This document shows, piece by piece, positions 21,300 through 32,000 of a DNA stretch of 32,000 nucleotides. The position numbers and the translations under genes are program-made. The notes beneath the pieces were generated by a model. The model was not told the origin of the DNA. It did no database searches and was given only the letters and a program-made list of their open reading frames with translations. The first letter of the stretch is position 1, and every line of letters begins with the position of its first letter. The DNA is from an uncultured bacterium. GTDB lineage: Bacteria > Margulisbacteria > WOR-1 > CAVSGV01. The stretch covers positions 1-32,000 of the forward strand of contig OY969425.1 of the NCBI GenBank assembly GCA_963699255.1, given 5' to 3'.

Positions 21300-21331
21300 T
21301 GAAATTTTTATTTATTTATTGCGATAAAGTA
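21300..21331 (+). promoter_or_regulatory. Promoter-like motif copy (TGAAAT-N17-GATAAA)
   Basis: TGAAAT 21300-21305, 17 nt, GATAAA 21323-21328. There are 28 nt to the ATG at 21357, and AAGGGA could act as SD. Confidence 0.5.
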
Positions 21332-21356
21332 ATTGAAAGAAAAGGGAAACCAATAT

Positions 21357-24300
21357 ATGCCATTTTTTGAACGAATTAAATTCAACAGGACAGATATAAG
21401 AAAGCAAAACGTTGAGCCCCTTAAAATAGGGAAGCAGGCTCCAAAGCTGCATTTGCCGGATCAAGAAATAAGGGTTCGAATTATCCCTGAGATCCATGGC
21501 ATAACGGGGAACATGGAAAACATGAATAATATCGGACGGACCATAAAGATTTCCCAGGATGACGCCACACTGTTCAAGACCCATCCCTGGCTGGAGCAAA
21601 TACCCGAGGACGCGATCTTAAGCGGGGAAACCGCGAAGATATTCAAGAATAAGCTTTCAAAGGTCATTGACGCGATGGACGGCCTGATGCCAAGTATCGG
21701 TGTTACGGGCACTAAATTAAAGAGTATCAGGGTCGCGACAGCGGAATTAAAGAAAATATTTAAGAGATCGGAAGGAAAGACGGTCCGGGACACATGCAAG
21801 GCATTGATCGGCGTATACACCTATTTGGGTGTAAGAGCGGTCGGGACCGTGGCTGTGGTGGGGATCCCGCAAATATCGACAGGTGAAAAGGTGATAGACG
21901 GAATAGCCGCGGCGGCGCTTTTTCTGGGAGAAAGTGTCGTAAGGCTCAGGACAACGATCGGATACCAGCACTCGATCCTGGAAGGATTGGGCAGGGGACC
22001 AAAATATTACGATATAAGCGCGGATGAGAAAGTGCATGCTTCGGGGATCGAATTCAACCCAAATGACCTGGAAAACCCTTTCAAAATATTTACTGACGCG
22101 CCGGAATGCATGTCTGTCCTATATATCAATGAAGAGCCCGGCGTGCTGGAGAGAAGCATTTTCGGGCACTTCTTTATTGAGAACAAGAGGCAAATGATGG
22201 TCGTGAACAGCGGAGGTTATAAGTTCGAGGAGTTCCAGCATATCGTGGATACCGTAAAAAATTGGATAGAAGCAAGAAAGAGCGAGGTACTGTCGGCAAA
22301 AGCTAGGTCCATAAGCTCCCGGGACGCGGAACTGTCGGCCATGGAACTTTTAAAGCTTCTTGTGAACATAAGGACGGAGTGCAAGAGGCTTTCCGATGCC
22401 TACTATGAAACGGCCGTTCAGGATTTTGGCAACATGATAGCGGGCAGCGGCGCGGCGCTAGATAAGGAGCTTGCTCAGCAGATATTGCTGCATACCCGCA
22501 AATGGGACGAGAAGATATCCGCTCTTTATGACCATATAGAAAATTATGAGGGCGGCAATGTAAACGCGGACCAGCTGAGACGCCATATAAGTTCTCACTA
22601 TGACTATCTTGAGCAAAAATTCACTTTTGACATAGTGATCAATTTCCGCAATTTCAAGACCTTTGATGTTGGAACGTATAAAGCCATGTGCGGCGCGATA
22701 GAAACAAGGCTTGCAGGTCAAAATATCGACATGAACGCGCCCGTAGAAAGCGCCTCTTTTAACGCGATAGTAGACAGGATAATCGAGGAGAGCGAAGACA
22801 GGGACAGGCCGGTAAGCTACCTGTTGTCAACGATCCAAATGAACAACGGGAACGTGCGCTATGATCAAACCTCGGCTTCTTATAAATATAATTGCATCAT
22901 CGGCGGAAAGACGAACAAAGCGGTGCTGGATGAGCTTATTATGGAGAATCTTTCAAGAATGGCGTTTGAAGGCGCCTACAAAGCCGGCGCCCGGGCCGAG
23001 GAATATGACCATCTTGGCAGGAAATACGTGAAGGCCGTGAACAGCTACGGTACAAGGTTCCTTGTGACCGTGGATGAATGGCTTGGCGGCATGTCGGATG
23101 TGATACTTGGGCCTGAATTGAGGAGAGCTTCAATTGATCTTGGGAACAATGTGGCCGGACAGCTTCAACTGGATGCCGCAAGGGCAATAGATAAAGAGAC
23201 AGCACAAAGAGCCATAGAAGCGGTGGCATCAAGGACATTGAACAACGGCGGCAACACGACGATCCGCGACAGGCAAAAGATAAGGATAATGGAGAGGATC
23301 GCAAAAGTGTTCATGGAGGATGGCAGGACGACCGGCGATTTCCTGAAAGAAATAGCGGCTGTCGCGCTTTATGATGTGGCGGCTTCTCCGACTTATGATC
23401 CGACATATGAGACCGCGATCGAATGGGCGGCGTATCCCGAAAAGGCGTATATCCTGAGCTATGACAAGGATTATGTCCCGCAGTCCATAGATCCGAACAG
23501 CGGCGAATATAATGATATGGCAAGATTGAGCGTGCCGATGCATGAAAAATGGATCTATGAAGACAACAGGACAAATATAGCTTTGATCCAGCATCCCCAG
23601 TACCAGAAGCATTTTAAAAAAGAAGGCCCCTTAAAAGACGGCGTCAGAATGACTACCGGCAACGGGAAGTACCTGGAGCCGGTGGCAAATTCTTCGGGAT
23701 CGGACCAGCAGGCATGGTACGGCGAGTTTGCCCTGCCAAAGCCGCTTGAAAGGACGCTTAGCAGGTATATCAACAGGAGAACAGGCGTGCAGTTCCTGGA
23801 AAAGGTTGCGAACAAACTTTACAAGGACAAGACCGTTAGAAAGAGCCTTGTCGCGAATATTACAAGGGATATGCGGGAGAATGTGGCTTACAGGATGGAG
23901 AAAGGTATTGACCAGAAGCTGGATTACCTGACCGGGCGGGAGATCATTGAAAGGGTAAAATATTATTCAAGGGATATCATGATCGCCACCGGGATTGGGC
24001 CGGGAAGGGGAAAATTCAACTCGTTCTTCAGCTGCGGTACCAATGAGCTTGAATATGCGGTGGGCATGATGCTTGGTTTTAACAGCCCATATACATATAT
24101 GGTGGACGGTATAACGATGCTCGGGCAGACGACCGTAAGATATAACCCGGACATGGGAAAGATGGAGATACATAATTATGAGCCCAGATTTTCAAATGAT
24201 CTGACATGGATAAGCGAAAGCAATGATCAAAATCACAGGCAAATGCATGAATTGAACGAGTCCGATATGAGGGAAATAAAAGAGGAGTACGAAGTTAACG

Positions 24301-30012: not shown

Positions 30013-30045
30013 TGAAATTTACGACGAAACCTGCCGATATATATA
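30013..30045 (+). promoter_or_regulatory. Promoter-like motif copy (TGAAAT-N17-GATATA)
   Basis: TGAAAT 30013-30018, 17 nt, GATATA 30036-30041, within the near-palindrome CCGATATATATATGTCGG. There are 65 nt to the ATG at 30107. Confidence 0.5.
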
Positions 30046-30106
30046 TGTCGGAAATAAGGCCGAAAATCGACTTAACGCGGCCAAAATATATTAGGGGGAA
30101 ATACAA

Positions 30107-32000
30107 ATGGGTGAGCAAGTAAGACTGGGAACGACCACGGATTATTATAGTCCGCAGCCGATAGATGTAGGGCACGATAAAGTAACCGGAGAAGAAATAT
30201 ACAGGCAGAGAACTTACGCGAAATGCAGCGTGGGCAAACAGAGCAACCTGACATTGGATGCCGCGCTTGATGAGGTTGAATCAGAGAAGATAGATTATCT
30301 GAATAAAAAACAGCCGTCACAGGCCTTTGGATGCATGATCCAGGCAGCCGGACTTTACGGGAACAGGGACGACATTGGCGACCGGAAAAAAGCATATTTA
30401 TTGCTCCGCAAAATAATAGTCCTGGCAAGCAAAGATACGATAGAAAGAACGAAAAAGACCATTGCCTATGGCGTGCCGGGCGGAGAAATAACAACCGCTG
30501 AATTTGCAACATTTGACCCTAAGTTTTTGAAAGATCCCCAGGTGCAGGAAGCCCAGGCGAAGATCGCTATAGCTGATCTGGTCCTGAAGCAGCTGAACGA
30601 CAATGAGGTCCCGGATGTTAAGGTTGTAGACCCAAAGATCACAGACGCGACAGCCTACGCGATAAGCTGCTGCCAGTCCGCGAGAACCGCCCTTAACGCG
30701 TTTAAATACAAAGACGATTTCAATATAAGCAAGAGCTACATACTAGAGGCAAAATTGATGGCTTTGAGTAAAGCATCGGATGACGATGTCCGCGCGAAAC
30801 TTAAGTCAGCGCACATCGATTGGAACGCGATCAAAGACCGCGTTTCGGATGATCCGAATGTCAAAGATGAAAGCCTGAGGCCGGCCGGGATGAGCAAGGA
30901 TGACTACATTGAAGAGATCAGGAAAGGCACCGTATACATCAATGCGTGGGCGATGGTTGAAGACGCGCATCTTACCGACCAGAAGGTGAACGTCAGCACG
31001 GAGGACATATCCGCGAAGATAGGTTTATGCAGTGATGCTCATGTAATGCTTTCCGGCAAGGACACGGACAACGGCATAGACAAGGCAAAGGATTATATTA
31101 ACCACGACGCGTTTTTAACAGAGGCGAACCTTACCGCGAAACTTGCCCGCCTTAACATTAATGATCCGGACAAATATAGGGGCGGCTTGAATGACGCAAG
31201 GGCCCTGTATAAAGAAATATCGGAGAAAACCGCGTTCAGTGATATAAAAGCTATCGCGATCGCAGCAAAAATATCCATCGATATGGAGCTTGGCGAATTC
31301 ACATGGGATGACGCGAAAAGTGCTTTAGAGGCTTATTTTGATCCAACAACCAGCACATTTCCCCTTAAATCCCCATTCGCTGAAAATTCATTCACATACC
31401 TGTCCATGGAGCTCCTGGAGGCCCAGCTGAGGAATACAACGCAAAGGAAGAAAGTGTGGGTCCCCGGCTGCGGCGATTGCACATATAAAACGAAGACCGA
31501 AGTTGCTGATTATACCCTCGCGGGGATAAGGACGGACAACGTGAAAAAGGCCATTAAAGCCAGATCAGTTAAGGCGGTCAGGGATCCGGAGGCGCTGAAC
31601 GACCTTAATATCAGGGCAAGTCTTGAACACGCCAGATCAACAGCTTTGGAAGGCATAGCGCTAAGGGACGATATCGCCAAAAGGGCGAAATTCAATGACG
31701 ACGCCATAAAAGAGCTTACGGATATCCTGGGCCCCACCGGCCTTAATGAAACCACGGACAATATATTGAACAATCTCGGCGGCAAGAGAAAAATGGAAAG
31801 CTCCTTCTATGTGACGCTGTGGGGGGAATGGGCGAATTACCTGGAGCAGATAGCGTGGCTGGACAGCAAGGATAAGCCGGGAGACATGAACATATTTAAA
31901 GCCGCCAATGACAAATACGATGAAACAATAAAGCTCTGCGGTTATTCAAAGGCCACATATGACAAAGGGGTAGCGGGGCAGGAAAGCGCCAGGAAGCAAA
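30107..32000 (+). CDS. Large hypothetical helical-repeat protein, 3'-truncated by the window edge (>631 aa)
   Basis: This ORF is not in the track because it has no stop in the window. I translated frame 2 from the ATG at 30107 (SD GGGGGA 7 nt upstream, in-frame TAG at 30092) to position 32000 and found no stop. Begins MGEQVRLGTTTDYYSPQPIDVGHDK. Ala/Lys/Asp-rich helical content; no domain recognised. Confidence 0.7.
   Translation, partial: MGEQVRLGTTTDYYSPQPIDVGHDKVTGEEIYRQRTYAKCSVGKQSNLTLDAALDEVESEKIDYLNKKQPSQAFGCMIQAAGLYGNRDDIGDRKKAYLLLRKIIVLASKDTIERTKKTIAYGVPGGEITTAEFATFDPKFLKDPQVQEAQAKIAIADLVLKQLNDNEVPDVKVVDPKITDATAYAISCCQSARTALNAFKYKDDFNISKSYILEAKLMALSKASDDDVRAKLKSAHIDWNAIKDRVSDDPNVKDESLRPAGMSKDDYIEEIRKGTVYINAWAMVEDAHLTDQKVNVSTEDISAKIGLCSDAHVMLSGKDTDNGIDKAKDYINHDAFLTEANLTAKLARLNINDPDKYRGGLNDARALYKEISEKTAFSDIKAIAIAAKISIDMELGEFTWDDAKSALEAYFDPTTSTFPLKSPFAENSFTYLSMELLEAQLRNTTQRKKVWVPGCGDCTYKTKTEVADYTLAGIRTDNVKKAIKARSVKAVRDPEALNDLNIRASLEHARSTALEGIALRDDIAKRAKFNDDAIKELTDILGPTGLNETTDNILNNLGGKRKMESSFYVTLWGEWANYLEQIAWLDSKDKPGDMNIFKAANDKYDETIKLCGYSKATYDKGVAGQESARKQ

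Follow-up and report, generated by a model that had tools for sequence, protein, structure and literature searches.

The analysis concerned a window of 32,000 nucleotides (nt), bases 1-32000 of the single-contig 1.77 Mb genome G000 of an uncultured Margulisbacteria bacterium, and in it a cluster of five genes, A to E, at positions 21333-32000. The cluster probably encodes a very rare, deeply diverged glycan system of the synthase-dependent type, with a split synthase and a cognate glycoside hydrolase of family 26 (GH26). A, B and C together would form one membrane-embedded, processive glycosyltransferase of family 2 (GT2) of the cellulose-synthase type, split in three translationally coupled pieces; D would be its cognate hydrolase. 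A probability of roughly 0.6 is given to this reading. It builds on the homology of the TED-QxxRW-channel part, a GH26 domain with an intact catalytic pair, gene fusions in relatives, conserved gene order and the lack of Sec-type signals. Coordinates are given in Table 1. Related loci, genomes and proteins are cited with the prefixes L, G and P.

Judged by the gene fusions, the genes A, B and C each encode a part of a single synthase rather than a separate protein. Relatives encode the counterpart of A-B-C as one polypeptide of 1500-2000 amino acids (aa). All three parts share a single open reading frame (ORF) of at least 1521 aa in metagenome locus L007, and A and B share one of 1515 aa in metagenome locus L008. 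A and B are also joined in one chain in P0007 (2021 aa), in P0009 (1832 aa) and in the genes of L041 and L042 (1775-1778 aa). C-like sequence is present in the P0007, P0009 and L041 fusions. It was not detected in the L042 fusion, and C is absent from L005 and L008. The B homologues exceed B in length; P0002 of L004, with 772 aa, is B fused to C. Relative G034 splits the synthase at another place, between TED and QxxRW. The sequence-only reading had listed a large membrane-associated protein, a GT2-like membrane protein and a helical protein. The three genes stand, but their products are not separate proteins, as the fusions in L007, L008, L041, L042, P0007 and P0009 indicate.

The A/B split is genuine because it is common to L004 (61-62% identical), with the same 13-nt overlap. 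B and C overlap by 16 nt, again in different frames, and C and D abut. The B/C break, set against the fused gene of the closest relative, amounts to a shift of one base (-1) at a CCC run and may stem from a recent mutation or from an error in the assembly.

The motifs of the synthase can be read in order along A and B. Gene A codes for a transmembrane hairpin (residues ~157-206) and is the only cluster protein with clear hydrophobic segments. It also has an invariant S(F/Y)DKDYVP motif of the DxD type and an FSCGT motif. Gene B follows with ITED (residue 132) and QHHRW (residue 171); it also has about four helices of weak hydrophobicity and, in FAATAAGDRK, a motif that resembles a gating loop. 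The blocks D-x-D-[YH]-[VLI]-P, F-x-C-G-T, ITED and QxxRW occur in the same order, invariant or nearly so, in 11 very divergent members of the family. The spacing from TED to QxxRW is 39 in nearly all members and is the same in the GT2 protein P0035. The GT2 assignment of B therefore needs one correction: TED and QxxRW are in B, but the DxD-type motif lies in A.

Standard scans of A, B and C with Pfam and NCBIfam returned nothing significant; the best model for B was PgaC_IcaA with E 0.01. The GT2 signal in B, missed by these scans, was recovered by family-profile methods. A profile of the family was scored by hidden Markov model search against 1.84 billion representative proteins and gave 32 matches, the weakest two being P0034 (E 6.4e-4) and P0035 (E 8.3e-4). 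Both are genuine GT2 proteins, with Pfam Glyco_trans_2_3 at 4.9e-13 and 1.1e-16, respectively, and relatives of P0034 are named cellulose synthase in their source records. Alignment of the TED-to-end part of the family with the P0034-family alignment by hhalign yielded 95.8% probability (E 7e-9, 241 columns) and covered TED, QxxRW, the membrane helices and a motif matching the gating loop. The PDB was searched with a focused family profile (A5) that held no genuine GT2 sequence. Poplar CesA8 (6wlb) was found with E 2.6e-4, followed by eight sequences of the cellulose-synthase superfamily with E 0.04-0.4 (four CesA, CslF6 and three BcsA). These nine distinct sequences top the list, and the aligned region takes in TED, QxxRW, the membrane helices and FxVTxK. 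The PDB yielded nothing relevant when searched by sequence with the whole-length family profile (A3). ITED and QHHRW of B align to TED and QVLRW of CesA8 and to the P0034 family. PLEFAATAAGDRK and the helices align to the channel region, with the motif on FTVTAK of CesA8 and YAVTAKG of the P0034 family; the lysine is not conserved and the hydrophobicity is low.

These profile, hhalign and PDB matches identify the catalytic and channel half as a homologue of processive GT2 synthases, so that the sequence-only assignment of a GT2-like synthase is upheld for the C-terminal half, where the Pfam models by themselves stay below threshold (profile E 6e-4; hhalign 95.8%; CesA8 E 2.6e-4). The nucleotide-binding half is placed at motif level, because the best local hhalign match of the DKDYVP block, MDPDHVP of GT2 proteins, has an E of 0.19, because removal of the insertions brought no gain over a control, and because structure prediction failed in this part.

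D provides the second line of evidence. Pfam PF02156 (GH26) matches with E 1.9e-12 and 47.6 bits, against a cut-off of 20.2, and is carried by all ten D-family homologues. The catalytic domain covers about residues 150-640. Both catalytic glutamates are kept: the acid/base residue in RPFHEMN and the nucleophile in MICETS. RPFHEMN and KPLMICETS are invariant in three aligned full-length orthologues, and a stricter motif scan found both in eight of the ten family sequences. The proposed GH26-like hydrolase is thus confirmed. The protein has three lineage-specific insertions and a C-terminal domain (residues ~714-1061) that is predicted to be all-helical in a low-confidence model. The best solved relative by sequence is the lichenase CtLic26A (E 1e-7), with GH26 mannanases next and slightly lower. 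CtLic26A was also on top of a fold search (E 1e-8, TM-score 0.55), which used the low-confidence model; this model shows eight beta/alpha alternations between residues 186 and 570.

G034 has another hydrolase at this place. Its synthase is followed by a 1135-aa TPR protein (TPR_12 1e-9) and by a protein of 1612 aa with a GH8 domain (E 7.5e-22) at its very start and with TPR repeats. The GH8-TPR protein is a non-orthologous replacement which keeps the logic of a synthase followed by a hydrolase fused to a helical scaffold. GH8 and GH26 families both include beta-glucanases and lichenases. Because of this and the affinity to CtLic26A, a beta-glucan is at least as likely as a mannan. The mannan-like polymer, put forward by the sequence-only reading as an unproven hypothesis, is weakened by the lichenase as closest GH26 and by the GH8 in G034; the product may be a beta-glucan or a beta-mannan-type chain.

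The sequence-only reading had made its case dependent on synteny in related genomes, and the orthologues proved strongly syntenic. GH26 comes directly after the synthase in eight independent loci: the window, L004, L005, L007, L008, L041, L042 and L043. The recurrence of the gene order in L004, L005, L007, L008 and L041-L043 shows that the arrangement is not due to chance. E-like giants come after the GH26 gene in L007, L008 and L041-L043. The full upstream order of the window is repeated in L041: a kinase fusion, two methyltransferase-like genes, a PurA-like gene and the synthase. Guanylate-kinase or NDK genes are located near the synthase in six of the eight synthase-hydrolase loci and in G034, and such domains adjoin the synthase in L008, L042, L043 and G034. 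The link to guanine nucleotides hence holds as a conserved gene neighbourhood, but a GDP-sugar donor is not demonstrated by it. In L043, a Glyco_transf_5 domain is fused to guanylate kinase, and L042 has a PfkB sugar kinase beside the synthase. Upstream of the nucleotide-kinase genes of the window, the same cluster holds tandem paralogues of ~900 aa, 57% identical, for which Pfam and PDB gave no match.

The family is extremely rare, with its 32 matches in 1.84 billion proteins. Within the phylum, the synthase module was present in 4 of 146 genomes; it was not found in the other five of the window genome's family, which are 70-86% complete. Literature searches found no description of a GH26-containing synthase-dependent system and nothing on the present cluster.

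Gene E runs past the end of the window. Extension of the contig beyond 32 kb, as the sequence-only reading had proposed, completed it at 34486. The three genes downstream of E, at 34500-39418, had no Pfam match. Pfam and NCBIfam scans of E gave nothing significant. Orthologues of E with 1472-1981 aa are located at the same position in L008, L041, L042 and L043. The TPR-like repeats of the earlier description are weak in the window. All TPR models of Pfam in C, D and E were below threshold (TPR_8 0.089, TPR_16 0.082, TPR_1 0.09), and the fold matches of the helical tail of D to TPR proteins were weak, at E 0.03-0.1; a clear TPR signal was confined to the analogous G034 proteins (TPR_12 1e-9). 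Within the window genome, the helical tail of D and E have no similarity. In L008, a segment of ~65 aa is common to the E orthologue (12379-16794, residues 738-803) and the helical tail of the D orthologue (9673-12294, residues 562-633), with E 8e-11.

The soluble proteins had been described as free of recognisable export signals, and this holds here and in the relatives. Cluster proteins have no N-terminal hydrophobic stretch; the maximal 10-residue hydropathy within the first 45 residues is at most 1.13. No hydrophobic signal peptide was found on D, E, F, G and H, nor on their orthologues. A hydrophobic N-terminus is also missing in nine other D-family members, in the GH8-TPR and TPR proteins of G034 and in the downstream genes of L041-L043. 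It is present in the outgroup GH26 protein P0165 and in unrelated genes of the window genome. A polar theme, I/V-N/D-x-I-S/N, is common to many N-termini of the leaderless proteins (e.g., MSDPLNKISGSGST, MDPINSISNNSLLYQ, MSGIDAINGSLNSNYL), at 26776-26820 in the window, at 34500-34570, 36722-36790 and 38567-38610 in the genome and at gene starts of L041-L043. The theme may be a non-Sec targeting signal.

The mechanism put forward starts at the cytoplasmic face, where the synthase would most likely assemble a beta-linked glycan from a nucleotide-sugar donor. The chain would be threaded through the synthase's own channel, formed by the hairpin of A and by about four helices and the gating loop of B. 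D, always next after the synthase, would act as cognate hydrolase and trim, release or proof-read the polymer, by analogy to BcsZ, PslG and AlgL. The helical tail of D and the giant E may be scaffolds towards the envelope.

The likeness to the cellulose-synthase superfamily (BcsA, CesA and CslF6) lies in TED, QxxRW, the interface and membrane helices and the gating-loop-like motif, all of which align, and the DxD-[YH]-V-P of the cluster synthase resembles their DxD. Unlike these synthases, the family has insertions of ~190 and ~250 aa inside the GT-A domain, is split into two to three genes in some lineages and is part of giants of 3700-5200 aa in others. It has no PilZ domain, the gating loop FAATAAGD is without the lysine of FxVTxK, and the GT2 models of Pfam remain below threshold. 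With the systems for cellulose (Bcs), poly-N-acetylglucosamine (Pga), Pel and alginate, the cluster shares the logic of a GT2 synthase, an adjoining glycoside hydrolase and large helical or TPR proteins; in G034, the hydrolase fused to TPR even belongs to GH8, as does BcsZ. The window differs from them in a hydrolase that is a GH26 fused to a helical scaffold, in the absence of a Sec/Tat signal on any partner, in the lack of a detectable cyclic di-GMP receptor and in the attached guanylate-kinase/NDK/PurA-like arm. D shares both catalytic glutamate motifs with CtLic26A, the GH26 beta-1,3-1,4-glucanase known as 'endoglucanase H' of Clostridium thermocellum, but comprises 1061 aa, includes three insertions and a helical C-terminal domain of ~350 aa, and lacks a signal peptide. 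The conserved guanylate-kinase and NDK neighbours allow a possible donor analogy to Alg8 of alginate synthesis and to plant CslA, GT2 enzymes that use GDP-sugars; no specific sequence relationship to them was shown.

Several observations weigh against a split processive synthase with a cognate hydrolase. The nucleotide-binding half (DKD/FSCGT) reached 0.2% probability in hhalign against GT2. Cutting out the insertions raised the hhalign score by only ~1 unit, and the score of a block-order control was equal. To our knowledge, insertions of ~190 aa (DxD to FxCGT) and ~250 aa (FxCGT to TED) are unprecedented for a GT-A fold. An AlphaFold2 model of a natural A-B fusion (L008 piece of 1200 aa, 11-row alignment) had a predicted local distance difference test score (pLDDT) of 54.8, below 50 in the GT core; a PDB fold search with it gave no match at E <= 0.001. 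The helices of B are weakly hydrophobic, with a maximum of 1.26. The AlphaFold2 model of D has a pLDDT of 44.8 and is usable only for the secondary-structure pattern and a fold match consistent with GH26. GH26 is a retaining and GH8 an inverting family, so the two hydrolases cannot have a common transglycosylation role. Pfam detected no PilZ or other cyclic di-GMP module in A to E; for C, D and E, the E limit was set as high as 10. Since D, E and their orthologues are without signal peptides, a periplasmic role needs an export route not yet known.

The leaderless GH26, GH8 and TPR partners throughout the family would fit a cytoplasmic process, as in Cgs, the synthase of cyclic beta-1,2-glucan. 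All soluble parts, namely D, E and the helical domains, would then remain within the cell, D would set the chain length or free the nascent chain on the cytoplasmic side, and the product would be an oligosaccharide or polysaccharide that is intracellular or exported later. The nucleotide-handling enzymes in the same cluster agree with this, and the proteins of 3683 aa (G046) and 5208 aa (G043) that embed the synthase module may be compared to the giant multi-domain synthases of the Cgs type. The conserved channel helices and the gating-loop-like motif speak for translocation, however, and the TPR scaffolds of known systems are periplasmic; processing within the cytoplasm is considered unlikely. 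A more far-reaching proposal keeps the export of the partners and sees in the cluster a new lineage of glycan secretion. The GH26 or GH8 hydrolase, the giant helical proteins and the downstream proteins would be exported without Sec or Tat signals, and a module of its own would supply the synthase by regenerating guanine nucleotides and GDP-sugar. The export signal would be the polar N-terminus, M-(S/D)-x-(I/V)-(N/D)-x-I-(S/N/T)-(G/N), with a following S/T/N-rich stretch; the route would be a new one or the flagellar-type export apparatus of the genome in a second use. The proposal as a whole is distinctly unlikely.

It is very unlikely that the GT2-like half is a relic and that A, B and C serve as a membrane scaffold, translocase or sensor without sugar polymerisation, in a cluster not made for polysaccharide. 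The N-terminal GT-A half is indeed unrecognisable to profile methods, its fold is broken by huge insertions, and A, B and C go unrecognised by Pfam and NCBIfam. A relic is not expected to keep DxD-type, TED and QxxRW motifs close to invariant in very divergent members, nor does it suit the constant pairing with an intact glycoside hydrolase. The three-way split might also reflect a decaying or mis-assembled gene and a cluster that is non-functional in the window genome. The single-base (-1) shift at the CCC run relative to the fused form of the closest relative points in this direction, and the B/C break was found in the window genome alone among the loci seen. Yet the A/B split has the same 13-nt overlap in the 61-62% identical relative, each piece keeps a start codon at its junction, internal stops are absent, and all motifs are intact. 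Split positions also vary by lineage (G034, L005), so splitting seems tolerated. Decay or mis-assembly appears highly improbable as the explanation.

From 21.3 kb on, every long ORF of the window lies on the forward strand. The gaps before A (101 nt) and before E (145 nt) each have one GTGAAATTT-N13-15-GC(C)GATA motif; a scan for the sigma-70 consensus found nothing on the forward strand in these gaps. For gene A, the start at ATG 21357 is likelier, with an AAGGGA ribosome-binding site in front, and gives 1008 aa. Further copies of GTGAAAT(T)-N12-16-GC(C)GATA are located in the genome at 458711, 1051886, 1163162, 1358722 and 1578090. The downstream genes include an rpoD-like sigma factor and a FGE-sulfatase-like gene. 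A sigma-28/flagellar regulon was rejected for the motif before A and E, as its other copies precede rpoD-like, FGE-sulfatase-like and uncharacterised genes and not flagellar ones. The window genome encodes FlhA (flhA 266972-268936), three rod/hook-type proteins and FliA-like sigma factors; a six-frame search for Flagellin_N and Flagellin_C had no matches in it. A flagellar link to the cluster was likewise dropped: FlhA is present in 135 of the 146 phylum genomes and does not track the cluster, so flagellar export is kept as speculation only.

The synthase module is also embedded in giant ORFs of two other genomes: L014 (G043:C4), from 5603 to the locus end with 5208 aa, and L015 (G046:C3), at 4147-15195 with 3683 aa. 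Both extend beyond the module on either side by another ~1500 aa or more, for which there is no family match. No GH26, GH8 or D/E-like parts were found in these ORFs, and no large partner genes downstream of them. The contig starts with a complete bacterial 16S rRNA gene (1537 bits).

Table 1. Features of the gene cluster and its surroundings; positions refer to the window unless stated otherwise.
Feature	Position	Strand	Remarks
16S rRNA gene	44-1561		complete, contig start
Tandem ~900-aa paralogue 1	8567-11269		upstream of nucleotide-kinase genes
Tandem ~900-aa paralogue 2	11335-14031		upstream of nucleotide-kinase genes
Promoter-like motif before A	21299-21326	+	GTGAAATTT-N13-GCGATA; motif match only; 34 nt before TTG 21333
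Gene A	21333-24383	+	ORF, 1016 aa; putative N-terminal synthase piece
S(F/Y)DKDYVP (DxD-type)	23463-23480	+	in A
FSCGT	24027-24041	+	in A
A/B junction	24371-24383	+	GTG start of B overlaps TAA stop of A, 13 nt, frame shift -1
Gene B	24371-25840	+	ORF, 489 aa; putative synthase piece with catalytic and channel motifs
ITED	24764-24775	+	in B
QHHRW	24881-24895	+	in B
FAATAAGDRK (gating-loop-like)	25304-25333	+	in B
B/C frame break	25817-25819	+	CCC run; one more C restores the frame fused in P0002 (GP-QTV...)
Gene C	25825-26775	+	ORF, 316 aa; putative C-terminal helical domain of synthase
Gene D	26776-29961	+	ORF, 1061 aa; leaderless GH26 hydrolase
Catalytic domain of D	27223-28695	+	residues ~150-640
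Acid/base Glu of D	27904-27906	+	in RPFHEMN
Nucleophile Glu of D	28483-28485	+	in MICETS
C-terminal domain of D	28915-29958	+	predicted all-helical
Promoter-like motif before E	30012-30039	+	GTGAAATTT-N15-GCCGATAT; 95 nt before E start
Gene E	30107-32000 (to 34486 in genome)	+	1459 aa; leaderless, without family match

If the reading of a split synthase with cognate GH26 is correct, the cellulose-synthase superfamily would gain a deeply diverged branch that tolerates insertions of 200-250 aa in the catalytic domain as well as gene fission, which bears on what a processive synthase minimally needs as its core. Hydrolase and scaffold partners that are consistently leaderless would be at odds with the usual view of the assembly of synthase-dependent systems in a diderm envelope, and hint either at chain editing in the cytoplasm or at an export signal that has escaped recognition. 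The exchange of GH26 for GH8 at the same position would be a natural experiment on the hydrolase properties that the system needs. Margulisbacteria are a sister lineage of Cyanobacteria without cultured free-living members (PMC6349859), and the cluster would provide a testable handle on their surface biology.

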